DNA from: Roseibacillus sp.
GTDB lineage: Bacteria > Verrucomicrobiota > Verrucomicrobiia > Verrucomicrobiales > Akkermansiaceae
Direction of reading: 5' to 3'
Length of the DNA: 64,000 nucleotides
Assembly: GCA_051251855.1 (NCBI GenBank)
Contig: JBPOGI010000001.1
Coordinates: forward strand, 1,696,001-1,760,000
The notes beneath the pieces are model-generated. The model had not been told where the DNA came from. It did not search any database and was given only the letters and a program-made list of their open reading frames with translations. Within the stretch, counting starts at the first letter, position 1. Every line of letters starts with the position of its first letter. A program made the translations under genes and the position numbers. Positions 14,733 to 44,003 of the stretch are shown piece by piece.

Positions 14733-14747
14733 CGCGTTTGCAGACGA

Positions 14748-18600: not shown

Positions 18601-18733
18601 AGAAATCAAAGAAAAACGCCTCATCATTCAAAAGAACGGCGGCTACCTCGCCGGCAACACCTTCCCCCGCCTCCACGCCAAGTCCCCCGAAAAACAAATC
18701 GAAGAAGCCATCTCACTTCTCGAAAACTTCTAA
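15614..18733 (+). CDS. mfd: Transcription-repair coupling factor
   Basis: RGGILDLF, CarD-like domain, [32 protein letters not shown]-like [29 protein letters not shown] tail. Confidence 0.96.
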
Positions 18734-18813
18734 GAAAATAGGATTCATCAGGCTTCAGTTCCACCTTCGGTCCGAACCTCGTTAAAGAGGAAACCGAACC
18801 CTATCTCGTGGGG

Positions 18814-19518: not shown

Positions 19519-19620
19519 CCCCTTTGCTAATGCCCCGAGGGCTGCGCGGGAAGCCCGAAATCTGTTCCATGACCCAAACCTGCCTTTTCCCTTCTGCACC
19601 TAAGGCCCATAACTGCCTAC

Positions 19621-20997
19621 GTGTCCGATGCCGTAACCTTGCGCAGCCTTTGCCGCGCCCCCGAAATTGGGGCTAATTCCTATCAACTGAGCTTCGGCGA
19701 AACCAACCTCGTCATCGACGCGGGAATGCATCCCAAGCAGGATGGCGAAGAAGCCATTCCACGCTTTGGGATACTCGACCACGACTCCGTTGATGCCATT
19801 TTCATCTCCCATGCGCACTTAGACCACATCGGAACGCTACCGGTCCTCCAGCGAGAGCAACCACGTGCACGTGTCTACATGACGCCTGAGGTCGTCGATT
19901 TGGCAGATGCCCTCCTCCACAATTCCGTCAACGTGATGACGAGCCAAGGGGACGAACTGGGTATCGATGCCTACCCTCTCTTCACCCATGCCGACCTGGA
20001 TGAACTGAGTCAGGTCTGGCAAGGCCAGCACTACCGCAAGGAGTTCGACCCCGTTTGGGATGCGGATTTGAAGGTCACCTTTCGCGATGCCGGCCACGTC
20101 CTCGGTTCTGCCGGAATCCTCTTTGAGGGAGGCGGGAAGCGCGTTTTCTACTCTGGCGACGTCCAATTTAAGGATCAAAGCCTCATCAAGGGAGCCGACT
20201 TTGGCGATTTGGGACCCCTCGATACCCTCATCGTCGAGACCACTCGCGGAAACACTCCAGCTGAGCCCGGTTTTGATCGCGAAGAGGAGGTCCAACGCCT
20301 GATCGCGGACGTCACCAAGACCATTAACGGCAACGGCTCAGCTCTCATCCCTGTCTTTGCGATGGGAAAAACCCAGGAAGTACTGACCATGATCCAAAAT
20401 GCGAAGGAATCAGGCGACCTCCCCGATGTGCCCGTCACCATCGGAGGGCTTTCCACCAAAATGACGACCATCTATGACCGTTACGCCTCCAATAAGAACC
20501 GTAAGCGACCTGACTTCCGTATCTTACGTGACATGGAGCTGCGTGCAGGCACTCGACGACGCGGCAAAAGTGTCCCCATTCGCTACCAAGAGCAGGCTAT
20601 CTATGCCCTTTCAAGCGGGATGATGTCTGAGAACACCGTCTCCAATAAATTTGCCCAGACATTCCTCCCTAATCCCGCAAATTCGGTTCACTTCGTCGGC
20701 TACTCCGATCCTTCCACCCCTTCTTATCACCTGCGCCAAGCTTCGACCGGCGACATGATCAGCCTGGACGAGCGTAAAGACCCCGTGGCTCTGAATTGCG
20801 AAGTGAAGGAATATAATTTCTCAGGTCATGCCGACCGCGAACAATTGATGGAGTTCATCATCGGAACCGGAGCCAAGAATATTTTCCTCGTTCACGGAGA
20901 CCTTCCAGCATCGAAGTGGTTCCAGCAAGAACTCGCCAAACGAATGCCCTCGGCTGAGGTCACCATTCCCGATCCCGGAACCAATTACGCGCTCTAA
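19621..20997 (+). CDS. MBL-fold beta-CASP metallo-hydrolase (RNA-processing type)
   Basis: SHAHLDHIG, AGHVLGS, YSGD, PVFAMGKTQE, FSGHAD, LVHGD. Confidence 0.88.
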   Translation: MSDAVTLRSLCRAPEIGANSYQLSFGETNLVIDAGMHPKQDGEEAIPRFGILDHDSVDAIFISHAHLDHIGTLPVLQREQPRARVYMTPEVVDLADALLHNSVNVMTSQGDELGIDAYPLFTHADLDELSQVWQGQHYRKEFDPVWDADLKVTFRDAGHVLGSAGILFEGGGKRVFYSGDVQFKDQSLIKGADFGDLGPLDTLIVETTRGNTPAEPGFDREEEVQRLIADVTKTINGNGSALIPVFAMGKTQEVLTMIQNAKESGDLPDVPVTIGGLSTKMTTIYDRYASNKNRKRPDFRILRDMELRAGTRRRGKSVPIRYQEQAIYALSSGMMSENTVSNKFAQTFLPNPANSVHFVGYSDPSTPSYHLRQASTGDMISLDERKDPVALNCEVKEYNFSGHADREQLMEFIIGTGAKNIFLVHGDLPASKWFQQELAKRMPSAEVTIPDPGTNYAL

Positions 20998-24300: not shown

Positions 24301-25239
24301 ATGCTTGCTTTCTCCACTTGTTGGAACAACTCCCGCCATAGCGATGGCGAGGAAATGGTGGATGAGATCCTCGAACTCGGATTCGACCACTTGGAACTCT
24401 CCCACGGGATGACCATCGCCAAGCTCCCTGGTCTGCAGAGAGCCTACAAGGCGGGCAAGTTCACCTGCGTGGGTGTCCATAACTACTTTCCTTCTCCCAC
24501 CGAGGTTATGATCGATGCGCCCGATGCCTATGAGTTCACCTCCTTTCGCGAGAACGAGCGCCAGCGTGCGATGGACATGACCCTCAAGACCCTCGATGTC
24601 GCCGCTGAGTTCGAAGCCAAATACCTCGTCCTTCATATGGGCTCCATCCCCCAAATGCCTCATAAAAAGTGGACCGGCAAACTGACAGCCATGGTCAAAG
24701 ATGGCGAACAGGACAATCCCGACTACGTCAAACATAAGTTGAAGTGTGTCAAAAAGCGGGAAAAACACGGCCCCCTCTACTTTGACCGTGCTTGCAAGAC
24801 CCTCGAAGTCCTGGCCGAACGAGCTGCTGAACTCAATATCAAACTTGCAGTCGAATCACGTTCCAAGTTCGAGGATATGCCCACCGAACGAGAGATGCTC
24901 GTGCTACAAGAACGATTCAAGGACCACCCGAATGTTGTCTATTGGCATGATTTTGGCCACGTGCAGCTCAAGCACAACCTCGGTCTGTTAGAGCATGCTG
25001 ATTGGCTACGCAAAGTTCAGCCCTATCTTTATGGAGCTCACGTGCACGACGTGGAGTGGCCAGCCCGCGACCATCGAGTCCCCTTCACCGGCGAATTAGA
25101 CTACAAGAACCTCTTCCAATACTTCCCCAAAGATGCGCCCCTCACTTGGGAGCTTTCCCCCACCAGAAAGGCCGCGCAAATCAGCACGGCCTTAGAAGTT
25201 TGGAAAAGTCTTTATCCTGAGACCATCGTCACTCGTTAG
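24301..25239 (+). CDS. Sugar phosphate isomerase/epimerase (AP endonuclease 2 TIM barrel)
   Basis: LVLHMG, LAVE, WHDFGH, HVHD, DHRVP..G, WE motifs. Confidence 0.75.
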   Translation: MLAFSTCWNNSRHSDGEEMVDEILELGFDHLELSHGMTIAKLPGLQRAYKAGKFTCVGVHNYFPSPTEVMIDAPDAYEFTSFRENERQRAMDMTLKTLDVAAEFEAKYLVLHMGSIPQMPHKKWTGKLTAMVKDGEQDNPDYVKHKLKCVKKREKHGPLYFDRACKTLEVLAERAAELNIKLAVESRSKFEDMPTEREMLVLQERFKDHPNVVYWHDFGHVQLKHNLGLLEHADWLRKVQPYLYGAHVHDVEWPARDHRVPFTGELDYKNLFQYFPKDAPLTWELSPTRKAAQISTALEVWKSLYPETIVTR

Positions 25240-27497
25240 GGAACCAGTTCAACACGGAAGAACTCGTAACCAAGAGCACCCAAATCGAGTTCGCTCTCAG
25301 AAATGGTAAAGCGATTTGCCCCATCATCGGAAGTGGTCACCGCAGTAAAGCCTCCTGCCAAGTCAGTAGCTCCTGTGACAATCTTTCCAGCAACGCCTCC
25401 TTCAACCTCGATGAAAAAGTCGCCATTACTCTCAAAGCCACAGCTCGTGATCACCAGCTCAACAGGCTCAACCTCGTTAGCCGGAAGACCAAAGAGGGTG
25501 AACCTCAGATTACTATTCGTGGTGAACGCTCCCGAGCCATCGCTCCGGACCCGCAGCCCTGTTCCAAAACCATTCTGAGCCTTGAGTCGCAGTGCAGCCG
25601 TGCTTTGCATACGAACCGCTAAACTTGTGCCCGCGCTCGTGAAGGTGATGGGTTCCTCAAAGGCAAAGTAAGAAACTCCCGTGGACCCTGAAGGGCTCAA
25701 CGTTCCGCGTGCAACGCCGACTAGTGTCTCGCAGTCAACGCCATCGAAGTCATCATCAGCGTCGGCGGCCGCAGGGTCATAAAATTCGAAAGAGATATCA
25801 CCTTGCCCGTTTCCACCTCCAGTGACGACCCAAGCGATTCCTGTAATCTCAACTTCAGTTCCTGCCTGAGGAAACAAGCCCGGAAAGAGGGTCGTAAAAT
25901 TCGGTCGCCCAAAGCCAAAGGTCAGATCGGCACCACCTTGAGCCGCTTCGTTGAGAATCGCCGTTGCCAGCGCGTCAGGGTCGCTTGCAACCGGACGGAT
26001 GGGCAAGGCATCCGCTGGCCCAACCACTCCGAAATTCATAATGGGAGTCAGACCGAGAGGTGCCGGGTTGATACCGTCTCCTGGGAACTCACTCACATCG
26101 TCCGGATTCGTGCCATAGAAGAGAACCTCTTCGGCATCAGTAAAGGTATCGCTGTCGAAGTCATCGTTGAGGAACGGATCAAGGCCATTGGCCAACTCGT
26201 AGGAGTCCGACAATCCGTCATTATCGGTATCGCGGTTTACGGGATTCAAGAATCCTGACAATCCGGTGGAATCAAATTCAAAACGGTCACTCAGTTTATC
26301 GTTATCAGTATCACTATCGTTGGGGTCTGTGCTTTGAAACCCGCCATTAAACTCGTCGATATTGAGGAGCATGTCCAAGTCGGGATCGTCTTGAGACTCA
26401 TCGCTGTTGATAGGGTCAAAACCGTTATCAACCTCCCACCCGTCGAAGAGGCCGTCCCCATCGGTATCAGATTCGGTTGCATCGGTTTCTGTCGCTTCGA
26501 CCACGCCGTTCCTATTGACATCTTCTTCAGCATCGGTGAGCCCGTCTCCGTCAGAGTCCGCACTGTTAGGATCCGTCAGCATTGTCAAAACTTCGACTCC
26601 ATCCAGAATCCCATCATTGTCAGAATCGTCATTATCAGGGTCCGTCTCTTCGTTGAAGAAGGCCGAGTTGAGAGAGCCAAATACCTCATCCTTATCTCCA
26701 AGATTGTCTCCATCTGTGTCGGTTAAAAGAGGGTTCGAAGTAAAGCCTGTGAAAAGGTCACCAAACACCTCATCACCATCTTCCAAGTCATCGCCATCTG
26801 TATCGGGATTATTCGGATCTGTTCCCGTATTTGACGCATTCACATAAATCCCGGTATTTGTCTCGAATTCGTCGAGAATACCATCGTCGTCGGTATCCAC
26901 ATTCCCGGCAATAAAAGGAGTAGAAGTTCCCGCGATGGTAAACTTGGGACCATTAAAAGTTTCCATCGAGAGTGCTGCAGCTTTGAATCGGACCGAACCT
27001 GCCCCAGCACTGTTAGAGGGAACAACTTCGATTCGGAAGCGGCCTTGGGAATTCGGCATCGGATCTGGTATCACTGCCGAGAAAGGGGCATCGAAGACAA
27101 CATAGTATTCTCCCGCACCGTCATGAGTATAGTTCACGGTTTCCTCCCCAATAAAGAGGTCATCAAATGTATTGAGAGTATTGTCTGCTCCGAGATATCT
27201 CAGTCTCACTGTGAGTTCGGTCGCATCATTAGCTCCCGCAGTTCCCGAGGTCGCAAATGCGAAGCCAGTGATTTCGACAGTCGAACCATCAGCACCCACA
27301 TTTAATGCTGCAAGATTCCGATTTGCGGCAAATTGAGCCGGCTGATTCGTGGTGACATCGCTCCCTCCCGTAGCCGCATCATCGACAAAAAAGTCTGTTC
27401 CGAGACTAGCAGTTGCATCCCCTTTCACAAAACTGGAAGCGCAAGCGAAGCCACTCAGCAGGCTGGTGGTAATAAATATTGAATTAGCTATTTTCAT
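25236..27497 (-). CDS. Secreted protein: two copies of an unnamed domain flanking ~10 TSP3-like Ca-binding repeats, plus C-terminal tail domain
   Basis: Signal peptide; D(T/S)DxDGxxDxxE..GTDP repeats; ends EFFRVELVP. Confidence 0.8.
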   Translation of the reverse strand: MKIANSIFITTSLLSGFACASSFVKGDATASLGTDFFVDDAATGGSDVTTNQPAQFAANRNLAALNVGADGSTVEITGFAFATSGTAGANDATELTVRLRYLGADNTLNTFDDLFIGEETVNYTHDGAGEYYVVFDAPFSAVIPDPMPNSQGRFRIEVVPSNSAGAGSVRFKAAALSMETFNGPKFTIAGTSTPFIAGNVDTDDDGILDEFETNTGIYVNASNTGTDPNNPDTDGDDLEDGDEVFGDLFTGFTSNPLLTDTDGDNLGDKDEVFGSLNSAFFNEETDPDNDDSDNDGILDGVEVLTMLTDPNSADSDGDGLTDAEEDVNRNGVVEATETDATESDTDGDGLFDGWEVDNGFDPINSDESQDDPDLDMLLNIDEFNGGFQSTDPNDSDTDNDKLSDRFEFDSTGLSGFLNPVNRDTDNDGLSDSYELANGLDPFLNDDFDSDTFTDAEEVLFYGTNPDDVSEFPGDGINPAPLGLTPIMNFGVVGPADALPIRPVASDPDALATAILNEAAQGGADLTFGFGRPNFTTLFPGLFPQAGTEVEITGIAWVVTGGGNGQGDISFEFYDPAAADADDDFDGVDCETLVGVARGTLSPSGSTGVSYFAFEEPITFTSAGTSLAVRMQSTAALRLKAQNGFGTGLRVRSDGSGAFTTNSNLRFTLFGLPANEVEPVELVITSCGFESNGDFFIEVEGGVAGKIVTGATDLAGGFTAVTTSDDGANRFTISESELDLGALGYEFFRVELVP
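26095..26897 (-). repeat. Bacterial TSP3-like Asp-rich repeats (~10 units, coding)
   Basis: DTDDDGILDEFE, DTDGDDLEDGDE, DTDGDNLGDKDE, DSDNDGILDGVE, DSDGDGLTDAEE, DTDGDGLFDGWE, DPDLDMLLNIDE, DTDNDKLSDRFE, DTDNDGLSDSYE, DFDSDTFTDAEE. Confidence 0.8.
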
Positions 27498-27508
27498 GGT
27501 TTTTGGTC

Positions 27509-30500
27509 CTATCGTTGGTTGAAGCGCATCCGGAAGAATTCACGTTCCTCGTTAAGATCCGGCTCGATGGAAAGGCGGTAGCGGCCACCACCCAGAGACT
27601 CGACGAGCACCGAGTCATCTTGGTTAAAATCCTCTAAATTCGTTGCACGCTCGGGAGTTGGCGAGAAAGGCCCCTCTGCAGACATGTCCAGAGAAAGCCC
27701 TAGCAGCCCAGTGCTCTGACTGAAAAAATCAAGCATGGAGCCAGAAAACCCAACCTCCCCTGGACGAAGACTCGTAAGCTCTCCTTCCATCGCCGATGCT
27801 CCAACCGCAAAGTGGCTCAGCCCACTCGCGTAGGACCCAGTAAGAGAGAGCGAAAGAGTTTGTTCTCCTAGCGTAAAACTCAAAACACTGGTGGAAGCGT
27901 CGAACGAAAAACTTCCCAGACTGAAATCTTCAGGGAGGGCTATAAGAGGCAACGACTGCGAACCTCCCGTTTTTCCCTCCATGAGAGAAACCTCGTTATT
28001 TCCGAAATCAACCACCGCTTGAATCAAGTTCGAGCGGGACGAGGAATCCCCGATTGCATAGACAAGTTTTGCATGACCAGCATTGTTCTCTTCAGTTGCA
28101 CGCAGGAAGAAATTAAAGTCCCAGTCTACAGTCATTGACTGCGTCTCACGGAAGGGCCCAGACAAGAAAACAGGCGAAGATGAATTCGTCCTCAGTCGAT
28201 AACCACCTGGAATCGCCGTCCGTTCCAATCCCGCATCTAACTCTACGCCGCCGCTTCCGTAGAGGGGCACTGTTGTCCGCGCATCCCATGCCAAAAAACG
28301 CTCCTTCAATTCCTCAAAAACATCGGGATTGGCTCCCGCAACATTCGTCGTTTCTCCGATATCACTTTCTAAATCATAGAGAACAGGATTGAAGCCAGGG
28401 TCGCTGTTGAAGAGCTTCCACTTCCCTTTCCTAAGCGCTGAACCACCGCCCGTCGAGCCACTGGCACGAAACGGAATCACCCGTTCATCAGGCAGCGCCT
28501 CCCCCCCATTCAAGAGTGGCATCAAATCCAAACCATCCAAACCGTTGCGGGCGACCGCTGGAGCTCCCCCCGCATTCACGAACGTCGCCATAAAATCTAG
28601 CGAGCTTACGGGAGTATCAATCACTTGATTTCCTGGCATTCCACCAGTCCACTGAATCGCACAAGGAACCCGAATCGAGCCTTCCTGCATGCTGCCACTC
28701 TTCTTTCCCTTCAAAGGAAGGTTATAAGAGTAATTCCCACCAAATCCGGTCACCCATTCCGCGCCACCGTTATCCGTCATGTAGACAAAGATGGTGTTAT
28801 TGGTCAGGCCTTCGGCTTCCACCTTATCGACCACTTTACCAATGTTCTCATCCAAAGCCAAAGTCATCGCAGCTAGCTCGTATCGATTAGCATCGACTGT
28901 CGCTTGATTGGAATTGGCAAAGACTCGTGGCGAATTCAAATAGTCTGCGGCCGTCAAACCAAATTCATTCTGTAATCGAGCGAAGCGCGCATCTGCGGAC
29001 TGAATATCCATCGGGCCGTGGACCGCAGTGAATGACATGTAGATGTAAAAGGGCTGCCCCGCATGGTTCTGCAAATGCTCGTCGATAAAATCAACACTAC
29101 TATCCCCAATTCGATCGGTGAGATAACTTCCATCCTCATCGCTAAAAACGGGCGTCATTTGGTCTTGAAAAATCCGACTCTCATCCGAGTTATTGTAGTA
29201 ACTTCGACTCCCTGACCACATTCCATACCAGCGATCGAATCCACGGACATTAGGATGATACTCCACAGTATCTCCCAAGTGCCACTTCCCTACCCCGTAG
29301 GTCCGATAGCCCAACCCTTGCAAACGACGCGGGATGGTTTGCACCCCCACAGTGAGCCCATTATGGCTGGCTCCACTCAGGTTGTTATCAGTTCCAATGC
29401 GCTGCTGGTGTATACCGCTCAAAATCCCGCAGCGCGAAGGATGGCAGACCCCCGCAATGGCATAAGCGTCAGTGAAACGAGCCCCTTTGGTAGCAATCTG
29501 TTGCAGCTCCGGCATCGGATATTTCGCCGCCCAAGTGGGATGTCCATTGAGCTGAATGTCCGAGTAGCCTTGGTCGTCCGAAAAGATAAAGATAATATTA
29601 GGAGGAGTGGAGACCGTCGACCAATTCTCCAAAGCGGTCAGGACAATCTCAAACTGACCACTGGTGGGAACATCGTAGTCCACTCGAAATCGATTCGGCC
29701 CCCAACTGAACTCTTGTCCATTGCGAGCATTTCCAAACTGGCCATCACGACTCCCATATCGAATCAAGGAAATGGTGCTACCAACAATGTGAGTATATCC
29801 CGCGTCGAACGTCAAATCGAGCGCGCAACGATTCAGGATCAAAGCCCCCTCGGCTACCACCGCTGGTGAGCCCCCCGGATTGTGGAAACGCATCATGGAT
29901 CCCCCTCGTTCGAAGGCTCCCATCGTCAGGTCTCCAGCGACCTCGAAGGCACCGCCCGCAATCGTCACCGAACCATCACAAGACTCCACACTTGTTCCAA
30001 AATTTGCATTCCCTTCCACGGAGAGCGTGCCCCCATTCACCTCTACAAAAGAGTCGTTCGCACTCACATTGCGGCCTACCACCAAGTCGCCGCCCACATT
30101 GAGGGTCCCCGACTCCACCACCAGCGTCCCTTGCCCGTCCGCAGTCCCGTCGATTCCCAAGTTCAAAACACCAACTCGCTCATCGGCTGGAATCCCCCGA
30201 TAAGCCACCCTGCGATACTCACCGACTAACACCTGGTCCTCATCACCCAGATCACCCGACGCCGTCCCCCCTGGCACTTCCCAGCTAATTTCATCCCAAA
30301 AGCCACTGGCGGTTGCGGTGTTGGAAACCGGGGGCGTTTCCCCACCAGAGGAAGAGCCAGCCAGGCTCAACTTTACAGCCCCTTGACCTGTGCTCCCTGA
30401 AGGCGAAGTTTTACGCCTGATATTCCCATTAGAAGTGATCGAAATCCGGAGTGAACCACCACCAGCTGTGAAGCTCAAATTGTTGTCAAAAATCCAAAGA

Positions 30501-30859
30501 TATTCTCCCGCTCCCGAGAAAACGAGGTCATCTGAATAAGAGCCGAGCACGACATCATCAGCGGTTCCTACGGCTTCATCCGCACCAAGGTCAGTAAAGG
30601 TCACTGTCGCTTCCGTTGCCGCTGTTCCAGACCCCGACGATGCCCATGCCAACCCCGTCAAGTTCACCATCGCACCTGTAGTCCAATATCCGGTGACCGT
30701 GCGATTGAAGTTGGAGGTTGTATTGTCACTTCCGCCTGTAGCGGCATCATCAAAGAAGAAGTCAGGGCCTAACAAGGCAGTGGCATCACCAGACACAATG
30801 TCGGCAGCCCCCGCCATCGTTAAAGAACCCGCGAGGGCGACGAGACAAAGTTTTTTCAC
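27509..30859 (-). CDS. Modular secreted formylglycine-dependent (S1) sulfatase
   Basis: PNIIFIFSDDQG, CHPSR, GKWHLG, AVHGP, TDNGG, KG...EG.IRVP; N-terminal unnamed domain and beta-helix-like repeats. Confidence 0.9.
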   Translation of the reverse strand: MKKLCLVALAGSLTMAGAADIVSGDATALLGPDFFFDDAATGGSDNTTSNFNRTVTGYWTTGAMVNLTGLAWASSGSGTAATEATVTFTDLGADEAVGTADDVVLGSYSDDLVFSGAGEYLWIFDNNLSFTAGGGSLRISITSNGNIRRKTSPSGSTGQGAVKLSLAGSSSGGETPPVSNTATASGFWDEISWEVPGGTASGDLGDEDQVLVGEYRRVAYRGIPADERVGVLNLGIDGTADGQGTLVVESGTLNVGGDLVVGRNVSANDSFVEVNGGTLSVEGNANFGTSVESCDGSVTIAGGAFEVAGDLTMGAFERGGSMMRFHNPGGSPAVVAEGALILNRCALDLTFDAGYTHIVGSTISLIRYGSRDGQFGNARNGQEFSWGPNRFRVDYDVPTSGQFEIVLTALENWSTVSTPPNIIFIFSDDQGYSDIQLNGHPTWAAKYPMPELQQIATKGARFTDAYAIAGVCHPSRCGILSGIHQQRIGTDNNLSGASHNGLTVGVQTIPRRLQGLGYRTYGVGKWHLGDTVEYHPNVRGFDRWYGMWSGSRSYYNNSDESRIFQDQMTPVFSDEDGSYLTDRIGDSSVDFIDEHLQNHAGQPFYIYMSFTAVHGPMDIQSADARFARLQNEFGLTAADYLNSPRVFANSNQATVDANRYELAAMTLALDENIGKVVDKVEAEGLTNNTIFVYMTDNGGAEWVTGFGGNYSYNLPLKGKKSGSMQEGSIRVPCAIQWTGGMPGNQVIDTPVSSLDFMATFVNAGGAPAVARNGLDGLDLMPLLNGGEALPDERVIPFRASGSTGGGSALRKGKWKLFNSDPGFNPVLYDLESDIGETTNVAGANPDVFEELKERFLAWDARTTVPLYGSGGVELDAGLERTAIPGGYRLRTNSSSPVFLSGPFRETQSMTVDWDFNFFLRATEENNAGHAKLVYAIGDSSSRSNLIQAVVDFGNNEVSLMEGKTGGSQSLPLIALPEDFSLGSFSFDASTSVLSFTLGEQTLSLSLTGSYASGLSHFAVGASAMEGELTSLRPGEVGFSGSMLDFFSQSTGLLGLSLDMSAEGPFSPTPERATNLEDFNQDDSVLVESLGGGRYRLSIEPDLNEEREFFRMRFNQR

Positions 30860-30869
30860 GAGGACAAGA

Positions 30870-31577
30870 TTAACGGCGGCGGCGTAGAAGTGACAAAAGA
30901 CCCATTCCGCCCAACAAAGCCACCGTCGGCTCGGGAACAGGAGTCACTAGGCCTGCAACACTCAAACTCATCTGATAACCAGTTCTCGTGTTGCCATTGC
31001 CAGTATTCTCGGCCTCGGCACCAGTACCAGTAGGACCAGTCTTTAAGCGAAGAGCTGCCGTATTCGCGATACTGAAACCAAAGCCATTGGAATCTGCGAC
31101 CCAAGAAATCGGAGTATCAAAGTTGACGTAGTATTCGTCGACGCCTGCGGCCTCGCTTGCAAAAGTCGTTGCGACCGAACCGAAGATGGTAGAATCGCCG
31201 GTATCGTAGTCGTCATTAATACCTAAGCTCCGAAACGAAATGGTCATGGTTCCGTTCTGGGTATTATTGGTTGCGTTATTATTGTTGGACCAAAAAGGCA
31301 ACGCGACCCCCGTAATCTCTACGGTATCACCAATTGTCCAATTCCCCCCGCTTTGAACTTCCCAAATGTGGGCAGAAGCATTTCCTCCGTCAAACCGCAG
31401 ATCGTTACCGCCGGAAGTGGCCAGGTCCATGAACAGAGTCTCACCCGATGGTGCGAGGTCAGCACTACCAATCGTATAACCTTTGACCCAAGTCGCTGAT
31501 TGGACACTCCCTGCCGCGAGGCCAAAAAGAAGGAGAGAGAGATTTTGAGGTTTTTTGTAAATGAATGCCATCATCAC
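30870..31577 (-). CDS. PEP-CTERM sorting domain protein
   Basis: Ends VPEPTVALLGGMGLLSLLRRRR; signal peptide. Confidence 0.93.
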   Translation of the reverse strand: MMMAFIYKKPQNLSLLLFGLAAGSVQSATWVKGYTIGSADLAPSGETLFMDLATSGGNDLRFDGGNASAHIWEVQSGGNWTIGDTVEITGVALPFWSNNNNATNNTQNGTMTISFRSLGINDDYDTGDSTIFGSVATTFASEAAGVDEYYVNFDTPISWVADSNGFGFSIANTAALRLKTGPTGTGAEAENTGNGNTRTGYQMSLSVAGLVTPVPEPTVALLGGMGLLSLLRRRR

Positions 31578-31581
31578 CTAC

Positions 31582-31607
31582 CTACAGAACCTCATAGAGA
31601 AACGTTA
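31582..31607 (-). promoter_or_regulatory. Putative ECF promoter TAACG-N16-TGTAG (PEP-CTERM operon)
   Basis: Identical bipartite motif and spacing also upstream of the sigma gene. Confidence 0.65.
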
Positions 31608-31634
31608 ACCGCAAAAATCTCTTTTTGCCAAAAA

Positions 31635-33161
31635 TCAATTTTCCAGGTCCAATCCTGAGTCGGCTAACCGCCCTTCATAGAGAGCGCAAACCCCAATACT
31701 ATCGACGATTCCTTCCGCAATAATCACCTCATCAATGAGGCCGGCAAAGCTCGCCAACTCCCAAGGAGATTCTTCAATCGCTCGCATAAAGCGTCCAATC
31801 ATCAAAGGCTCGGAACCCGGATCTGTCGTGACCGTATTGAAGGTGTCGAGACTCGCCATCTTTCCATCCATGGGAACCCGTGGCGTCATTTCCTCCGGCA
31901 CACCATCAATATAGAGCTGCGTCACAGGCCAAGCCCCCTTCTTGTAATCCCCCGTAACAATGACGACATGATGCCAGGAACCTCCATCTAATACACTGAC
32001 CCCTTCCAACCAACGACGTCCCGAAACCATTCGTAATCGTCCCTCTTTACCTAGTCGGAGCCCAAAAAAGGACATTCGGTCGTTACCGGCGGCTAGCCCC
32101 CAACCCAATATCGGATTCGCTCGCCCACCTTTCGAAGTCTTAAACCAAAAAGAAACAGTACGCGCTTGTGAGCCTGAAATCCCAGGCCAGTTCGCACGGG
32201 CATGGGTTTTCTTACCATCGAACAAAAGCCCCTTACCAAAGCGACCCTCGACCAACTGAGGACTATATGGATCGTCCATCACCAACTGAACACTATCTCG
32301 ACTCGCAATCGAGCCAGAACAACGACCAGCTTCCTCGTTTTCTGTATCAAAGGACAACAATAGCGCCGGAATTCCGCTTCCTAAAGAAGAAGGAAACCGT
32401 TCCTGATCGATAGGGATGGGAGTCATAAGCCCTTCCTCGGCTAAGACCATTGCTTGTCCTCCCTCCACTCTCGTTTCTTCACGGTTGCCGCTTCGCCCTT
32501 GCCCAATCACCAGACCACTGAGAACGTGAACTTCCGGCGTCAGATTAGTAGCATCAACTCCGAAAGAGGTGCCTAGGTCAGTTAACTCGAGATCTCCGGA
32601 TATTACTTGAAAACCTCGCGCCTGCTTTTCGACGTCGAAGCGAGCTCTCCCCCCCTTTAGGTGGACGAGTCCCTTTTTCTCGAGAGAAAGCTCAGCAGGA
32701 GCCTCTATCAGACAACGCACTCCTTCGAAAAATTGAATCTCAACCGTGCCCTGCACGACTCGAAGGGTAGCCCCCTTCTCAAGTTGGCCCGCCTTACGAC
32801 TGCCCTCCGCGGGTCCGCTCACCGCGATGAGGCCATGTGGAGAAACCGTCATCTCAGCTAAGATTGGTTGGCGTGATGGGCTCAAATGAAAGAACAAAGC
32901 CAACCCGAAACTCAGCATCAACAAGGCGGCTGCAGCCAACATCCAACTTCGTTTCGACCGATGAGCCACTGGACCCATGCTCGCTAGCGGCACCGAAACC
33001 GAAACTTCACGCAGTGTTTGCTCAAAATCAGCCTCGTCACAGAAGCGCTTCAAGAGCTTATCATCGGAATGCAACAACTCCTTAAGCTCTTCGATTTCTC
33101 CTTCTTTCAGCGTTCCACTAAAATAGGCTGAAGCGAGTTCTTCTAAGCGTGCCATCATCAT
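31635..33161 (-). CDS. FecR-like anti-sigma factor with LamG domain
   Basis: N-terminal helical domain, TM (WMLAAAALLML), FecR (IEAPA, GFQV...DLGTSFGV), LamG (WHHV, GLIDEV); overlaps sigma stop. Confidence 0.85.
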   Translation of the reverse strand: MMMARLEELASAYFSGTLKEGEIEELKELLHSDDKLLKRFCDEADFEQTLREVSVSVPLASMGPVAHRSKRSWMLAAAALLMLSFGLALFFHLSPSRQPILAEMTVSPHGLIAVSGPAEGSRKAGQLEKGATLRVVQGTVEIQFFEGVRCLIEAPAELSLEKKGLVHLKGGRARFDVEKQARGFQVISGDLELTDLGTSFGVDATNLTPEVHVLSGLVIGQGRSGNREETRVEGGQAMVLAEEGLMTPIPIDQERFPSSLGSGIPALLLSFDTENEEAGRCSGSIASRDSVQLVMDDPYSPQLVEGRFGKGLLFDGKKTHARANWPGISGSQARTVSFWFKTSKGGRANPILGWGLAAGNDRMSFFGLRLGKEGRLRMVSGRRWLEGVSVLDGGSWHHVVIVTGDYKKGAWPVTQLYIDGVPEEMTPRVPMDGKMASLDTFNTVTTDPGSEPLMIGRFMRAIEESPWELASFAGLIDEVIIAEGIVDSIGVCALYEGRLADSGLDLEN

Positions 33162-33724
33162 TGATCCCTCCTCTGTTTGCGTTCAATGCACTGCCGCAAG
33201 GTAGCTCTTAGTCTATGGAAAGACACTCGCAAACCGCCCTCACTTCGCTCCCACTTAAGAGAGCACTCGATGAGTGACATTCCCAGCCCGTATCGGTCGT
33301 AAATGAGGGAGCGATTCTTCGCTGACAGCTCTTGTAAACAGTCGACCAAATCCTCCTCATGGTCCTGCCAATGACTCTCCGTGCGTTGAGAGAGCTCTTC
33401 CTCCACCAGAACAGCCAGCTCCGAATCAAACAGAAGCCAAGAACTCCGCTTCTTCTCTTTTAGATAGGCCAAAGATTCCCAGCGAGCGATTGAGAAGGCC
33501 CAAGCCTTAAAATTCGTTCCCAACTCAAACTTCTCTCGCTTGCGCCAAATCACCAGATTGACCCGCTGCAGGATATCCTCCACTTCTCCGCCAGTTGGGA
33601 CCAAACTCCTCAAAAAAGCCTGCAAACTCGATTGATGGCTCGCAATGAGAGCCATCACCTCCTCATCCCCTTCGCAGGAGGGATCCACACTTGTCGGATC
33701 CAGAACTTTTAAAGAACCGCTCAT
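33158..33724 (-). CDS. ECF sigma-70 factor (Rhodopirellula/Verrucomicrobium type)
   Basis: EDILQRVNLVIWRKREKFELGTNFKAWA; region 4 L...RY...LR..LRQCIE. Confidence 0.92.
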   Translation of the reverse strand: MSGSLKVLDPTSVDPSCEGDEEVMALIASHQSSLQAFLRSLVPTGGEVEDILQRVNLVIWRKREKFELGTNFKAWAFSIARWESLAYLKEKKRSSWLLFDSELAVLVEEELSQRTESHWQDHEEDLVDCLQELSAKNRSLIYDRYGLGMSLIECSLKWERSEGGLRVSFHRLRATLRQCIERKQRRDQ

Positions 33725-35611: not shown

Positions 35612-38491
35612 GTGAGTCTCGGTCAATACTTGGAGAGTAGATTTAGGAGAATTTATACCCCTGCTCCAGCTCTACCTCAAAAAAACCACCCCATTTTGAA
35701 CCAACTCTTACTTCTGTTTGCGAGCTTCTTGATGATGAGCATAGCTCTCTCTCAAGATAAGTCCGACGACCTCTTGCTCGTCTCTGTAGGGGAAAGCTCG
35801 AACCGTTATTCTGAAGTGGCGCTTCATCTGCAGGGACTCTTCGCTGGCACGCCTGGAATGAGCGAAGTTCAAATCGATATCCATGAGGACTCAAATATCG
35901 AATCTCTCGCCGATGGTTACTACGACAAGAACCCGGAGGACATCGCGCTGCGTGCCAAAGCCGCCGAAGGTTACGGCAACGTCATTCTCATTCCTACGAT
36001 CCACACCACTCCGACCGGCACCATCGAATACTCTGAGTTTGGTGGCGGGCCCGCCAACGTCTACGACGATGCTCCGCTCGACAACGAATACTTCGCCCCA
36101 GAGGTATTCTACGAAGGTTGCACCCAGCTTTCGAAAATCATTCTTAGCGGCGGCAGCAAGCCCATGGTTTTCCTCCCGCTGAATTCTGATGAAAATCTGT
36201 CAGACTACGGCCCCGTAATGTATCGCGTGGCTAATGGAGTCGGGATGGAACTCGTTCCTGGAGCCTATGCAGTCGATGCGGCAACCAGCCCCACTCAGGC
36301 CGAGCAGCACTACCTTTATGCCTGCACCCTCTTTTCTCATCTCACTGGTCTCAACGCTACGACCTCAAGTTACAGTCCTTCGGGCATCTCCAGTGAAGAC
36401 GCCACAACCTTCGCGAACACGGCCGAAACGGCTGTCACCCTCAATCGCACGACCTCTCACTATAGCACCAGTTACGAAAACGATGGCGCCGTTGTCTACC
36501 GAAGCCTCGATGTCACGAGCGCTCCCTTCAACAATACCGTTCGATACATGTATAAAGGCTCGAGCACACAAGACTGGACTTCGGACGCTCTCGACAAAAT
36601 TATCGGGAGCAACCCTCCCACAACTGTCGCAAGTCGCAAGCTAGGCACTCGAAACGGCGTTTACTCTCCAGGAGTGCGATATTGGCATCCCGACGACATT
36701 GCCGACCAAGGCTTCAAGTTTGCCTTGGAACCAAACCAAGCCGCCTTGATGTATGTCTCTGGGTCTTGGGCTGGAGCCGGAGCGCAAGAGACGATCGACA
36801 TGACTCAGGCAAACATGATCCCCTTTGCTTTCGACTGGATTAAGTCCTTCGCAATTTCCCCCGCGGTCAGTGGCACCGCCTCGACAGTCGACGCCCTCGA
36901 TTATCACAGTTGCGTGGAGCTCTACTTCAACTACGCCGAGCGAGGCTGGAAACTCATTCCCTTAACGATTGGGATGGGCCGTATCAATGAAGCAGTCCCC
37001 AACTTCGTTGCTTCCGACGATGCCCTACACTCGTCAGACCCACTCGTCTACATGAACGCTTACATGATGCTCAGCTCCGCACTGGGCACACAGTTCCCTC
37101 TCCCAGCCACCATTGACCCCGCCGACATCCATCGCGGCTCCTACACCACTGAGCAAATTCACGAGGCCTGCCTCATCGGCCACGAGCTCATCAAGGAACT
37201 CGCTCACCTTTCTGAGACAGGCGACTTCGTGCCCGACACCGATCTCGAAATTCTTACCGACGAACTGCCAGAGGTGCCACTCGACGTGCCCTTCACCCAT
37301 CAATTGTCCGCCAGCGGTGGAGACTCTCACTACACTTGGGCACTCGCGGCTGAGACCTCTCTCCCACTAGGGCTCACCTTATCTAACACCGGCCTCATCT
37401 CTGGCACTGTAACAGGAGGATACGGCACCAGTGGCGTAGCCTTCCAAATAGCCGATGGCACAGGAGCCTTTCGAAAAGTGGGCTTAAAGCTAGCCACCCC
37501 TTTCCCTGCTAGAGGCATCACCTCCAACGTCAACATCTTTGCCGCTGCGGACACCAACTACGGGACAGACACCGTGGCGACGATGTATTCTGCGATGCAA
37601 ACCGCCCCCGATGGCTTGGCGACCTTTCGCATCGCCATTAACATAGACCCGATGGCGGGAACCTCTATCACAAGCCAAGCTCAAGGTCTTTGGGGCATCA
37701 ATTCTGGCGAAGGTCCTAGTGGATGGTGGACCACCTTCGATGGCAGCCTTTCTCAATCAGTTGACTCCATCTCGAACATCCACATTACCGACTTCAATGC
37801 CAATGGAGGAAATCTCACCCTAAGCGATTTCACCGACCTCTCCTTCACTTCAATCACGGTGCGCAATGGAGCGAACACAGCCGACCGAGTGAAAGTCGTC
37901 GCGGAAGGATTGGCGAACAACCCGAACGGACTCAGAATGGCAAGCGACCCCGCAACAATCGATTTACTTACCGTTGCGGGGACTCGCCCCATTTCCAGCT
38001 TCACCATTGCTAACGGCAACATTGGCAACAGCAAGGACCGCTGGAACATCGAAAGTATCGCCGTCGAATTCACGGTTCAGTCAACCACTGTTGAAGACTA
38101 CGCATCTTGGGTGGCCAGCTATGGCCTTGCCGGCAACGACGCTTTACTGGATGCCGACACTGACGATGACAACTATGACAATCTCATCGAATACGCCCTC
38201 GGCATGAATCCGACGCAAGCGGATGCGAGTTCAAAAGAGACCTATTTCACTGAGGAAGATAATGGAGCCGTCTCCTTCGTTTATGAGTATGAGCGCCGCA
38301 CCGACTACTTTGAGCGAGGACTCAGCTACACCTTGATCGAAACTCAAGACTTAATCACTTCCGCGACCGGCGCCCCCACTCAGGTCACTGTTGGCGACCC
38401 AATCGACGGCTTCGAGACCGTCACCACTCACTACCTCATTGGCGACCCCATCAAATTCATTCAGCTAGAAGTCACACTGACTTCTCAGTAG
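35612..38491 (+). CDS. Secreted modular protein: SGNH-like N-region, putative Ig domain, C-terminal tail domain
   Basis: DDALH catalytic-like motif; LPLGLTLSNTGLISGT (He_PIG-like); DADTDDDNYDNLIEYALG; true start may be TTG ~35696. Confidence 0.7.
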   Translation: MSLGQYLESRFRRIYTPAPALPQKNHPILNQLLLLFASFLMMSIALSQDKSDDLLLVSVGESSNRYSEVALHLQGLFAGTPGMSEVQIDIHEDSNIESLADGYYDKNPEDIALRAKAAEGYGNVILIPTIHTTPTGTIEYSEFGGGPANVYDDAPLDNEYFAPEVFYEGCTQLSKIILSGGSKPMVFLPLNSDENLSDYGPVMYRVANGVGMELVPGAYAVDAATSPTQAEQHYLYACTLFSHLTGLNATTSSYSPSGISSEDATTFANTAETAVTLNRTTSHYSTSYENDGAVVYRSLDVTSAPFNNTVRYMYKGSSTQDWTSDALDKIIGSNPPTTVASRKLGTRNGVYSPGVRYWHPDDIADQGFKFALEPNQAALMYVSGSWAGAGAQETIDMTQANMIPFAFDWIKSFAISPAVSGTASTVDALDYHSCVELYFNYAERGWKLIPLTIGMGRINEAVPNFVASDDALHSSDPLVYMNAYMMLSSALGTQFPLPATIDPADIHRGSYTTEQIHEACLIGHELIKELAHLSETGDFVPDTDLEILTDELPEVPLDVPFTHQLSASGGDSHYTWALAAETSLPLGLTLSNTGLISGTVTGGYGTSGVAFQIADGTGAFRKVGLKLATPFPARGITSNVNIFAAADTNYGTDTVATMYSAMQTAPDGLATFRIAINIDPMAGTSITSQAQGLWGINSGEGPSGWWTTFDGSLSQSVDSISNIHITDFNANGGNLTLSDFTDLSFTSITVRNGANTADRVKVVAEGLANNPNGLRMASDPATIDLLTVAGTRPISSFTIANGNIGNSKDRWNIESIAVEFTVQSTTVEDYASWVASYGLAGNDALLDADTDDDNYDNLIEYALGMNPTQADASSKETYFTEEDNGAVSFVYEYERRTDYFERGLSYTLIETQDLITSATGAPTQVTVGDPIDGFETVTTHYLIGDPIKFIQLEVTLTSQ

Positions 38492-39282: not shown

Positions 39283-41850
39283 ATGAGCACCACCTTCGTT
39301 CGACTTGCCACCTGCCTACTTCTCACTGGAGGAGCACAAGGTCAAGGCAGTCAGTTGGGGTTGCGTGCGGATTGGCTGAGAGGCTCGTGGGGAGCCTTGT
39401 GGCTCCCTGAGAGAACTTACAATGGAAACATCGAAGGAGTCACTATTGATGCATTCCTTACTCAGATCGAGGAGCTAAAAACGATCGACTACGTCCAAGT
39501 CCCTCTTACGAGCCCTAATATTTTCTCCCCAGCGCACACCGGACCTCACCCTATCCTTCAAAGCCTTTGGCAAGGAGACACCGACGCCAATGGCGATCCT
39601 ATTAACTTGATCGTCCCCCGCACTTCCGCGCAGGATCCGTTATTAAGCTGGCTAGAAGCCCTCAACGCAGCGGGGCTCAAATCCGAAATCTACGTCAACT
39701 CTTACAATCTACTGGCTCGCATTCCTGCGAATATCCCAAGCGACTACCCTGACCTATCTGCTCGCTGGGAAAACTTTTGCGACACCAACCCTACCGTCCA
39801 AGCCTTCATCAGCAACCACCCACACCTCGCGCCTGAAGACCCCGAGAGGCGAAAATACATGTTCTGTTACGCGGAGTTCATCTTGAAGGAATATTCCCTC
39901 CGTTACGGGGACCTCATCGATGCATGGACTTTCGATTCAGCCGACAACATCATGGAAGACTGCGGCGACGATGCCGCGAGCGGCGTGCTAGATGACCAGC
40001 GAATTTACGAGGCTTTTGCTAACGCCTGCCATGCCGGAAATCCCAATGCGGCGATTTCCTTTAACAATAGTGTCGGCAACGATATAGCGCCATTCGCAAC
40101 CCCATCTCTCTTCGATGACTACACCTTTGGACATCCCTTTGGAGGAGCAGGCAACATGGTTGTCCCTGAGATTCTCTACACGAGAAATTTTGCGATTTGC
40201 GAGTATATGCAGGAACACAACGGTCTGCCTTTTGTCACCACTGATGACAGGCTTTGGAACGACAATGTCGTGGCCCACTTCTTTCCAAAGCAAAGCACCA
40301 CCTCTTGGAATGCGGGGTCTGCGCCCTGTCTTACCGATGCTCAATTCGTCGAGTGGACCGCGGAAGGAGTTCTCAACGGTGGAGCAATCACTTGGGGCAC
40401 GCCGCTCTTTAGGACAAACTTGGAGAACTCCCCTATTCTCACCCTCCGTGAGTATGCGCTCAACCAACTAGAATTGGTGGACGAACATTTCAGTGAACTC
40501 CAATTCCCTGATGTGCCGAACTGGCGAAGAGCGGAAACCCCTTTTCCTAAGGCCAATGGCCAAACACCCTATACCCACACCTTGACCGACGGTGTTGATT
40601 TTTGGGATCCCGCTGGAGGAAGTATCACTAGCCTGACAGCCATCGGTCAGCCGTCTTGGTTAACAGTGGCCGAAACGAGCCCTAGCTCAGGTGAGTGGAC
40701 TCTGAGTGGAACTCCAACGGAAACGATTACGAGTGAGCACTCTTTTGATCTAAAGATCATGATGGGAACCGTAGAATCAACGAGGACCGTTCAGCTCGTA
40801 GTAGAAGTTCCCGTCCCTCCTCCAGTGGGGCTCGTTGCCTATTGGAGATTGGATGAGGAGTTCGGCCTGACCGTGACAGATTTTTCGGGGAACGAGTTTC
40901 ATGGCTCCCCCGTCAACACTTCCTCGACTACTGGAGTGAGTGACGGTGCTTTAAATTTTAATGGCAGCAACTCCCGTATCTTAATTCCAGAAGCGACCTT
41001 CGCATCTATCAGCGACCAAATCACTCTCACGATGTGGATAAAAGGAGACTCCACGCAGCCATCCAACGACGCCATCTTTCAAGCACGTGACACCAATGGA
41101 GACCGCGCGATCAACATTCATCTTCCATGGAGTAATTCGACAGTCTTTTGGGATGCTGGAACCGGTGGCCAACCCTACGACCGCATTTCGAAAACTGCGC
41201 TCCCCTCAAACTTCAAGGAGCGATGGAATCACTGGTCCTTCACCAAGAATTCGACCAGCGGTGACATGAACATCTACCTTAACGGATCTCCTTGGCACAG
41301 TGGATCAGGAAAATTCAAGTCAATGTCAGGAGTTACCGAAGGAACTCTCGGGAGCGGAGTGAGTTCAGCTCGCTATGGCGGCATGGTGGACGAAGTCATG
41401 CTCTTCAACACCGCCCTCAACGATTCCGAAGTGAAGGAACTTTACGAGGGTTACCAAGGCTTTGAATCGTGGCTCACTCGACACCCCAGCTTGGAACAAG
41501 TGGAACTTCTCTTCGATGCTAATTCGGATGGCACCCCGTTGTTGCTTGAATATATTTTTGACGGAAACCCCTTCGTCTCAGACCCATTGATTCTTCCGTC
41601 AGCAGAAAGCTCTGACGAGAACTTCATCTTCAAATACACTCGGAGATCAGAATCAGCTAACGACACCGAACAAATCTTTCAACATAGCGCAAACCTCATC
41701 GATTGGACCGACATCCTCATCACCGGCCAACAAGCTGCAGAAGTCAGTATTGACGAGGAAGTCAATGATACCGAAGAAGTCACGATCACGATCAGTCAAG
41801 ACGTTGAAATTGGTGGACGACTATTTGGGCGACTGAAGGCGACTCGATAA
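39283..41850 (+). CDS. GH107 endo-fucanase (fucoidanase) with Ig-like, LamG and C-terminal tail domains
   Basis: N-terminal ~400 aa closely resembles Mariniflexile FcnA as recalled (LWLPERT.NGNIEG, LTSPNIFSP, AW.FDSADN, DYTFGHPFGGAGN, HFFPKQSTTSWNAG). Confidence 0.85.
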   Translation: MSTTFVRLATCLLLTGGAQGQGSQLGLRADWLRGSWGALWLPERTYNGNIEGVTIDAFLTQIEELKTIDYVQVPLTSPNIFSPAHTGPHPILQSLWQGDTDANGDPINLIVPRTSAQDPLLSWLEALNAAGLKSEIYVNSYNLLARIPANIPSDYPDLSARWENFCDTNPTVQAFISNHPHLAPEDPERRKYMFCYAEFILKEYSLRYGDLIDAWTFDSADNIMEDCGDDAASGVLDDQRIYEAFANACHAGNPNAAISFNNSVGNDIAPFATPSLFDDYTFGHPFGGAGNMVVPEILYTRNFAICEYMQEHNGLPFVTTDDRLWNDNVVAHFFPKQSTTSWNAGSAPCLTDAQFVEWTAEGVLNGGAITWGTPLFRTNLENSPILTLREYALNQLELVDEHFSELQFPDVPNWRRAETPFPKANGQTPYTHTLTDGVDFWDPAGGSITSLTAIGQPSWLTVAETSPSSGEWTLSGTPTETITSEHSFDLKIMMGTVESTRTVQLVVEVPVPPPVGLVAYWRLDEEFGLTVTDFSGNEFHGSPVNTSSTTGVSDGALNFNGSNSRILIPEATFASISDQITLTMWIKGDSTQPSNDAIFQARDTNGDRAINIHLPWSNSTVFWDAGTGGQPYDRISKTALPSNFKERWNHWSFTKNSTSGDMNIYLNGSPWHSGSGKFKSMSGVTEGTLGSGVSSARYGGMVDEVMLFNTALNDSEVKELYEGYQGFESWLTRHPSLEQVELLFDANSDGTPLLLEYIFDGNPFVSDPLILPSAESSDENFIFKYTRRSESANDTEQIFQHSANLIDWTDILITGQQAAEVSIDEEVNDTEEVTITISQDVEIGGRLFGRLKATR

Positions 41851-43886: not shown

Positions 43887-43926
43887 AAAAAACCAAACCC
43901 CCGCCTAGAAAAACTAAGCGGGGGTT

Positions 43927-43929
<3 letters not shown>
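43887..43929 (-). terminator. Intrinsic terminator after tRNA-Asp
   Basis: 12-bp stem CCAAACCCCCGC/GCGGGGGTTTGG with U-run on minus strand. Confidence 0.75.

Positions 43930-44003
<74 letters not shown>

Follow-up and report, generated by a model that had tools for sequence, protein, structure and literature searches.

Here, we describe a gene for a predicted fucoidan-degrading enzyme in a 64,000-nucleotide stretch of DNA from Roseibacillus sp. (assembly GCA_051251855.1, contig JBPOGI010000001.1, positions 1,696,001 to 1,760,000), hereafter the window. Fucoidan is among the most recalcitrant of the algal polysaccharides, and endo-fucanases open its backbone. The gene is the third of four closely spaced genes on the + strand, which encode, in order, an SGNH-like esterase candidate, a GDSL esterase, a protein of glycoside hydrolase family 107 (GH107) and an S1 sulfatase, with gaps of 21, 8 and 28 nucleotides (nt) between them (Table 1). 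It is an intact, ordinary gene for a fucoidan-cutting enzyme. We propose, as a very probable reading of the whole, that it encodes an alpha-1,4-fucanase, that it sits in an apparent four-gene operon, and that it belongs to a Verrucomicrobial clade of GH107 proteins that carry a LamG domain (GH107-LamG), a group with many members in marine Verrucomicrobia already.

Table 1. Coordinates of the GH107 gene, of the parts of its product and of other features of the window (aa, amino acids; ORF, open reading frame; HMM, hidden Markov model; Ig-like, immunoglobulin-like)
Feature	Position	Strand	Remarks
GH107 endo-alpha-1,4-L-fucanase gene, predicted (P0001)	39283..41850, stop codon included	+	855 aa, ATG start, ORF uninterrupted
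Probable Sec signal peptide, ~residues 1-20 (MSTTFVRLATCLLLTGGAQG)	39283..39342 (the 60 nt before 39343)	+	cleavage site judged by eye
Catalytic D1 domain, ~residues 21-410	39343..40512	+	homologous to the MfFcnA (beta/alpha)8 barrel
Codon GAT, D218, predicted catalytic nucleophile	39934..39936	+	context DAWTFDSADNI, aligned to FcnA DAWCF-D-SA
Codon CAT, H284, predicted acid/base	40132..40134	+	context DYTFGHPFGGA, aligned to FcnA DDYTFG-H-PFG
Single Ig-like repeat, ~residues 411-510	40513..40812	+	aligns with FcnA repeat 1 inside the main match
LamG / ConA-like jelly-roll domain, residues 560-718	40960..41436	+	Pfam Laminin_G_3, E=2e-17
Unnamed C-terminal domain, ~130 aa, residues 726-855	41458..41847	+	ends in GRLFGRLK
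Secreted protein, 959 aa, SGNH/DUF4886-like esterase candidate, first cassette gene	35612..38491	+	fold search
C-terminal domain at the C-terminus of the 959-aa protein	38100-38430	+	HMM E=3e-12
GDSL/SGNH esterase, 253 aa	38513..39274	+	Pfam Lipase_GDSL_2, E=2.9e-9; PDB 4h08, E=3e-14
S1 formylglycine-type sulfatase, 640 aa	41879..43801	+	Pfam Sulfatase, E=1.6e-33, and SGSH_C; PDB 6hr5, E=2e-49
17-pair hairpin between sulfatase and tRNA-Asp	43892..43930		scored as a minus-strand terminator
tRNA-Asp (GTC) with hairpin	43892-44003	-	directly after the sulfatase gene
Small ORF, 173 aa	35024-35545	+	between the aldo-keto reductase gene and the cassette
ECF sigma factor	33158-33724	-	divergent from the cassette
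FecR and LamG anti-sigma-like protein	31635-33161	-	
Small PEP-CTERM protein	30870-31577	-	
Sulfatase, 1116 aa, with a 400-aa N-terminal extension	27509-30859	-	
TSP3-repeat protein	25236-27497	-	
Alginate-lyase, CBM6/CBM35, LamG protein, 1389 aa	53587-57756	+	Pfam scan
C-terminal domain at the C-terminus of the 1389-aa protein	~57410-57650	+	HMM E=8e-7

The identity of the enzyme follows from its likeness to FcnA of Mariniflexile fucanivorans (MfFcnA). When the PDB chains were searched with phmmer, the protein matched 6dlh_A, annotated as ‘Alpha-1,4-endofucoidanase’, with E=9e-232 (residues 9-506 against residues 16-514 of the chain), and the three entries returned in all, 6dlh, 6dms and 6dns, are variants of this one protein. 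A BLASTP alignment with MfFcnA (P0035) has 324 of 506 columns identical (64%), and the catalytic part (residues 1-410) is 69% identical. A likeness of this degree is well outside what chance would produce. The homology begins directly after residues 1-20, at GLRADW, and these first residues are a probable signal peptide. The D1 domain of FcnA is a (beta/alpha)8 barrel (PMC10619423; this and the other papers cited are represented here by excerpts), and we infer the same fold for D1 of the window protein from this solved homologue. The Ig-like repeat also aligns, more weakly, with repeats 2 and 3 of FcnA (independent E-values of 1e-5 and 1.5e-6), and its region is 59-72% identical to the same region of the clade members described below.

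The predicted active site is complete. D218 and H284 align with the Asp and His of FcnA that are marked as catalytic in Tables 2 and 3 of the published comparison (PMC10619423), and the mutant structure 6dms has Q where H284 aligns. Both residues are invariant in an alignment of 19 GH107s, as are Y137, N139, N261 and W342 of the -1 subsite and the neighbouring P335; the -1 subsite residues and motifs listed in Table 3 of the same comparison are all kept here (PMC10619423). The two GH107 motifs, W-x-F/L-D and F-x-x-G-H-P/V, are both satisfied (D218, H284). The protein also has the motifs Y-V-N and FFPKQSTTSW, which Table 3 assigns to alpha-1,4 enzymes, while Y-I-A or Y-I-S is assigned to alpha-1,3 enzymes (PMC10619423). 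In calling the linkage alpha-1,4, we are relying on these motifs and on the 64-69% identity to a characterised alpha-1,4 enzyme, and both the catalytic activity, which we regard as almost certain, and the linkage specificity of the window GH107 are to be read as predictions from sequence. The secreted endo-alpha-1,4-L-fucanase would act on sulfated fucans whose backbone alternates between alpha-1,3 and alpha-1,4 linkages (Fucales-type fucoidan). It would cut this backbone through the retaining mechanism that has been proposed for GH107 and that uses an Asp/His pair, here D218 (nucleophile) and H284 (acid/base). An earlier note on this DNA, made from its letters and a list of ORFs, had recognised the resemblance to FcnA and had named a candidate Asp at codon 39934, a candidate His at codon 40132, one Ig-like repeat and a LamG domain. 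The pairwise alignment bears out the resemblance, the two codons are those of D218 and H284, the repeat (residues ~411-507) falls on FcnA repeat 1 and the LamG domain is matched by Laminin_G_3.

The remainder of the protein consists of the LamG jelly-roll, which probably serves in glycan binding, and of the unnamed C-terminal domain, which is laid out as short helices, a DANSDG loop and then a beta-sandwich. Compared with Verrucomicrobial relatives, the LamG region (residues 511-725) is 47-60% identical and the last 130 residues are 41-55% identical, the C-terminal values coming from 20 matched sequences (unnamed proteins and locus ORFs), of which the labelled ones are Verrucomicrobial. The tail is also found on a distant 1390-aa GH107 type in the same loci and phylum. 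According to the alignment consensus, most relatives in the clade are ~1060 aa long, with a further jelly-roll-like domain (~200 aa) that separates the Ig repeat from LamG, such that LamG starts at ~720 in them as opposed to ~515 in the shorter form. This extra domain is absent from the window protein, from the Haloferula protein and from P0002. A structural model of residues 505-855 (predicted local distance difference test score, pLDDT, of 80) matches carbohydrate-binding domain 4 of the arabinanase AbnA (5hon, E=1e-11) and other ConA-like lectin domains, matches that run through the LamG part and are uninformative on the last 130 residues. No Pfam or NCBIfam family gives the C-terminal domain a name, the literature on the domain not having been searched. 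Two candidate names were set aside: PI3K_C2, a stray Pfam match to the C-terminal domain (E=0.1 in a search at E<=5), and TafC, a sub-threshold NCBIfam match of the tail that covers the LamG region only.

For the C-terminal domain, a word-indexed search with residues 726-855 returned 3 other proteins only, and this search showed the domain on two proteins with autotransporter-associated repeats. In the Atlas, its neighbours are clusters without a name that occur most often in Verrucomicrobiota. An HMM made from an alignment of 17 rows matches 24 locus ORFs, 15 of them in Verrucomicrobiota and 9 in Kiritimatiellota, with no match in the Bacteroidota or Pseudomonadota loci examined. In the window, the same domain ends three secreted polysaccharide-active proteins, namely the GH107 protein, the SGNH-like esterase candidate and the alginate-lyase/CBM6/LamG protein. 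These matches agree with the earlier description of the C-terminus as host-type. In the Bacteroidota homologues, the position of this domain is occupied by the sorting domain of the type IX secretion system (T9SS). It is a tentative and rather doubtful idea that the tail is a lineage-specific module of Verrucomicrobiota and Kiritimatiellota for export or surface retention that replaces the T9SS sorting domain. If this were true, polysaccharide-degrading modules that cross phyla would be made functional in a new host by a swap of the tail tag.

The host belongs to the Verrucomicrobiota and is Roseibacillus-like, as judged by its Mfd protein (88% identical to that of Roseibacillus persicicus, 84% to R. 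ishigakijimensis and 51% to Luteolibacter) and by the DUF1501/PSCyt2/PSD1 genes found in the Pfam scan of the window, and the Verrucomicrobial host assumed before thus stands. The window is chromosomal, with ispH, aroB, purL, mfd, purC, lpxD, panC, fabD, dapF and enolase all present. A word-indexed protein search with the GH107 protein returned 223 proteins at E<=0.001, and the relatives are described from the 120 listed. Among these listed matches, at least 21 proteins are closer to the window protein than FcnA is, nearly all of them with a LamG domain. The closest named relatives are from Opitutaceae metagenome-assembled genomes (MAGs; 80-84%), Puniceicoccaceae (80%), Lentimonas (72%) and Rubritalea (72%), and one named protein closer than FcnA is non-Verrucomicrobial, that of an Aquaticitalea MAG (76%). 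The flavobacterial proteins listed are 57-76% identical and carry the T9SS sorting domain PF18962, which is found in 66/120 of the homologues. A genome scan that took one genome per species yielded 56 GH107 loci. Identity is highest in two Opitutaceae MAGs (84%), followed at 80% by Haloferula chungangensis and a third Opitutaceae MAG, and tblastn aligns the Haloferula gene collinearly with the entire protein (68% over residues 28-855). Neither a 100% match nor a Roseibacillus record is among the 56 loci, which come from a collection whose coverage of Roseibacillus genomes was not verified. As a separate observation, two Opitutaceae MAG loci (L004 of MAG_28, at 2846-17352, and L002, at 9905-20892) have three GH107 genes in tandem, either two FcnA-like and one of a distant ~1400-aa type or one and two, and the array in L004 has a homologue of the 959-aa protein upstream of it.

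The trees place the window gene with these Verrucomicrobial relatives. In a quick tree of 112 catalytic domains, its clade has a support of 99 and comprises 34 rows, of which 6 are labelled Verrucomicrobiota and 28 are unlabelled. A careful tree has 57 rows, with six distant GH107s used to root it, and there the gene falls in a clade of 16 rows with support 96/99 (6 labelled Verrucomicrobiota, 10 unlabelled). The first sister of this clade is the Aquaticitalea MAG protein with P0027 (96/97), the next is P0033 (97/97) and the third is the main flavobacterial FcnA group (82/73); P0027 and P0033 both have the T9SS domain. More broadly, the window protein lies within an FcnA-like group (49 rows and 100/97 in the careful tree, 76 rows and 98 in the quick tree), and it is this group, not the P5AFcnA/Mef1 or Fda types, that holds it along with MfFcnA, Fhf1 and the FWf-type enzymes. 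In the careful tree, the FcnA-like group has rows of Psychromonas and Pontiella interspersed in it and the four phylum labels make 7 changes, against a minimum of 3; in the quick tree, the outgroup GH107 clades mix phyla too. An approximately unbiased (AU) test rejected the grouping of the three Verrucomicrobiales rows (window, Haloferula and Rubritalea) together against the six Opitutae-type rows (p=0.012). The quick tree also contains, within the Verrucomicrobial GH107 clade, an unlabelled subclade that is free of LamG (P0010, P0012, P0014, P0016-P0020, P0022, P0024 and P0031), in which P0012, P0014, P0019 and P0024 have the dockerin-type PF00404 instead.

The neighbours of the GH107 gene in the cassette are consistent with action on the same substrate. 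The GDSL esterase is a candidate fucoidan O-deacetylase. Its homologues adjoin GH107 genes both in loci of Opitutaceae MAGs, at 63-67% identity, and in 10 loci of Bacteroidota, at 35-40%. The S1 sulfatase shares 59-61% identity with genes in the GH107 loci of Pontiellaceae and 37-38% with those in flavobacterial GH107 loci, and homologues of the GDSL esterase and the sulfatase flank flavobacterial GH107 genes, including that of M. fucanivorans, at 35-40%. The 959-aa protein is a two-lobed esterase candidate with an Ig-like repeat (~540-630) and a C-terminal region that includes the shared C-terminal domain; it has a GTG start, and the true start may be downstream. Although it has 3912 homologues at E<=1e-3, it has no Pfam or NCBIfam family, no PDB match at E<=1 and no usable Atlas match. 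The esterase lead comes from a fold search and invariant motifs only: a model of residues 30-545 (pLDDT 88) has as its best folds DUF4886 (4i8i, E=3e-4) and SGNH hydrolases, and G-x-S-T and D-x-x-H are invariant in the alignment of its homologues. In addition, the C-terminal 315 aa of this protein share 36-56% identity with parts of GH107 proteins from Pontiella and Pontiellaceae. Together, the cassette enzymes would deacetylate, depolymerise and desulfate fucoidan. No strong + strand terminator lies inside the cassette, and the hairpin that follows the sulfatase gene possibly also ends the cassette transcript. The best locus matches of the four genes are in different genomes (Opitutaceae MAG_28, MAG_26 and MAG_27, Haloferula, Pontiellaceae), which makes the cassette a mosaic.

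In light of these relationships, what might the history of the gene be? We propose that the GH107-LamG clade is the closest sister of the flavobacterial FcnA-type enzymes, that it has moved between Verrucomicrobial lineages, and that the cross-phylum exchange is old, predating this genome. Exchange across phyla is supported because the FcnA-like GH107s are far more alike across phyla (64-75% between the catalytic part of the window GH107 and flavobacterial ones) than is the housekeeping protein Mfd (51% even to Luteolibacter). Movement of the gene among Verrucomicrobial lineages is likewise supported, as judged from the rejection of the Verrucomicrobiales grouping and from the four cassette genes having their best matches in different genomes. 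The exchange would be old because the gene is fully ameliorated and its tail is already common to the clade, and the fusion of LamG and tail being so shared, any re-fitting would predate this genome. The GC content of the gene (0.514), its GC content at third codon positions (GC3, 0.558) and its codon-usage Kullback-Leibler divergence (0.037) all lie in the range shown by the 37 remaining window genes, and the GC3 of GH107 homologues tracks the host (0.125-0.30 in Flavobacteriaceae, 0.38-0.70 in Verrucomicrobiota loci). A foreign origin as read from composition was dropped for want of a signal, with GC, GC3 and codon-usage divergence within the window range both for the gene and for four sub-regions of it. 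The direction from Bacteroidota to Verrucomicrobiota is favoured by the tree, not proven.

Several points weigh against this reading. No Pfam or NCBIfam model matches the catalytic domain, and the GH107 assignment rests for that reason on homology to solved or characterised members. There is no trace of a mobile element in the form of an att-like direct repeat in 23000-45200, and residues 1-510 found no tblastn match among 72,556 plasmid records. In the trees, 10 rows of the clade (28 in the quick tree) are without taxonomy, and row P0030 shifted position between the quick and careful trees. A tree in which the 24 Bacteroidota FcnA-like rows form a single clade, apart from the outgroup and the Verrucomicrobial rows, was not rejected by the AU test (p=0.13), and the AU groups, although defined by taxonomy, were chosen after inspection of the tree. 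The operon is apparent from spacing alone. Finally, in giving the C-terminal domain a probable role in export or cell-surface retention, we are guessing from where it lies in the protein and in which lineages it occurs.

Other explanations have to be set against these. The protein might have a different specificity (for example endo-alpha-1,3, as Mef2 or Fda1/2) or be a non-catalytic binding protein, given that GH107 includes both alpha-1,4 and alpha-1,3 enzymes (PMC10619423, PMC11685898). We consider this improbable, because every catalytic and -1 subsite residue is kept, because its motifs follow the alpha-1,4 pattern where alpha-1,3 enzymes have Y-I-A/Y-I-S (PMC10619423), and because the identity to the characterised alpha-1,4 enzyme is as high as 64-69%. 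As regards the origin of the gene, a direct and recent transfer of a flavobacterial fcnA-type module into this genome, with fusion to LamG and the host C-terminus taking place here, would account for that same identity to FcnA, for the way in which Bacteroidota rows enclose the Verrucomicrobial clade in both trees and for the tRNA-Asp gene directly after the cassette. It is nevertheless hard to credit, being at odds with the at least 21 proteins closer than FcnA among the matches listed (the named ones Verrucomicrobial bar the Aquaticitalea MAG), with a LamG and C-terminal tail common to relatives at 41-60% identity, with a GC3 of 0.558 as against 0.125-0.30 in flavobacterial genes, and with the finding of neither an att-like repeat nor an integrase. 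With the tRNA-Asp gene directly downstream, a mobile-element explanation of the cassette was considered and dropped, since there is no att-like repeat and the Pfam scan of the window has no integrase or transposase.

At the other extreme, the gene could be an old Verrucomicrobial one that was inherited purely vertically and resembles FcnA through strong constraint alone. The labelled members of its clade are all Verrucomicrobiota, its composition is host-like and the monophyly of the Bacteroidota rows was not rejected (p=0.13), all of which speaks for such inheritance. We give it little credence, since the catalytic domain is 84% identical to that of Opitutaceae MAGs, which belong to a different class, whereas for Mfd the identity to Luteolibacter, a member of the same family by NCBI rank, is 51%, the lowest Mfd identity among 120 listed matches being 47%. 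In addition, the three Verrucomicrobiales rows were rejected as a clade, the Psychromonas and Pontiella rows are interleaved with more label changes than the minimum, and no Roseibacillus locus is among the 56 found. A transfer in the opposite direction, from Verrucomicrobiota or Kiritimatiellota to Bacteroidota, or to both from a third group, is unlikely. It fits the unrejected all-Bacteroidota FcnA-like clade apart from the Verrucomicrobiota (AU p=0.13) and the mixing of phyla in the outgroup GH107 clades; set against it are the three successive sisters, Bacteroidota or T9SS-bearing, with support of 96/97, 97/97 and 82/73, and an FcnA-like diversity that is greatest in Flavobacteriaceae. We therefore keep to the old cross-phylum exchange followed here through the GH107-LamG clade. 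The earlier note had proposed that the catalytic module crossed phyla and was re-fitted with LamG and a host-type C-terminus, a story that is right in kind but errs in its timing and its recipient. There is support for exchange between lineages, its direction across phyla being unproven (AU p=0.13), and re-fitting in this genome is contradicted by a tail common to the clade, a host-like GC3 and nearest relatives that are Verrucomicrobial. The placement of the gene among Verrucomicrobial GH107s, which the note had proposed to look for in a tree, refutes a transfer private to this genome, and the clade is not simply vertical either (AU p=0.012).

Other features of the window are also of interest for polysaccharide use. 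The divergent set on the - strand (25236-33724), which runs from the extracytoplasmic function (ECF) sigma factor to the TSP3-repeat protein, may regulate the same polysaccharide locus or belong to it. Between the aldo-keto reductase gene and the cassette, the 173-aa ORF has weak NlpC/P60 and amidase matches (E ~3e-3) and a lipoprotein-like N-terminus. Further downstream, the 1389-aa protein, with a LamG that shares 41% identity with the LamG of the GH107 protein, suggests that the window has a second function directed at brown-algal polysaccharides.

GH107 is counted among the fucoidanases of marine degraders, including Verrucomicrobial ones, and a Roseibacillus isolate has been reported as a fucoidan degrader (PMC13668718). 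For the GH168 endo-fucanases, horizontal transfer has been given as the cause of the >60% similarity that a flavobacterium shows to Verrucomicrobiota, Roseibacillus among them (PMC11685898). With Verrucomicrobial GH107s, fucoidan degradation by Roseibacillus and GH168 transfer already reported, our finding is unsurprising; the excerpts found on GH107 horizontal gene transfer or Roseibacillus fucoidan hold no explicit statement on GH107 transfer. What is added is one more FcnA-type candidate for the opening of the fucoidan backbone, in a Roseibacillus-like genome, along with a compact set of four genes (two esterases, a fucanase and a sulfatase) that could be co-expressed. The more useful leads are the C-terminal domain in the place of the T9SS tag and the unnamed SGNH-like esterase family adjoining GH107 genes.

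Among the closest known systems is MfFcnA (GH107; 6DLH, 6DMS, 6DNS), with which D1 and the first Ig-like repeat are collinear (64% over 506 columns) and the Asp/His pair and -1 subsite residues are shared. The two differ in that the window protein has one Ig-like repeat where MfFcnA has three, in that it ends in LamG and the unnamed C-terminal domain and not in the flavobacterial tail (there is no PF18962 match), and in the GC3 of their genes (0.558 in the window, 0.236 in M. fucanivorans). The M. fucanivorans locus (L009) resembles the cassette in having GDSL esterase and S1 sulfatase genes nearby, yet these are just 37-38% identical to the window neighbours.

Fhf1 and Fhf2 of Formosa haliotis, which are characterised endo-alpha-1,4-fucoidanases, belong to the same FcnA-like subgroup, with a catalytic part 64-66% identical (P0057, P0092) and the same catalytic motifs (PMC10619423), whereas they have flavobacterial tails with the T9SS domain and Fhf2 is on a separate FcnA-like branch. 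P5AFcnA from Psychromonas (6M8N) and Mef1 from Muricauda eckloniae share the GH107 family and the catalytic pair, but form a distant single-domain subgroup with the motifs WLDNS and NGHVTP and no accessory domains (PMC10619423); neither was matched in the PDB sequence search at E<=0.01. The nearest likeness overall is to the uncharacterised Verrucomicrobial GH107-LamG proteins (Opitutaceae MAGs P0003, P0005, P0009 and P0011; Puniceicoccaceae P0015; Lentimonas P0026; Rubritalea P0029; Haloferula L003), which are in the same clade, are 72-85% identical in the catalytic domain and have the same LamG and C-terminal tail. Most of these differ from the window protein in their length of ~1060 aa with the extra jelly-roll-like domain, and the genomic neighbourhoods are different too.

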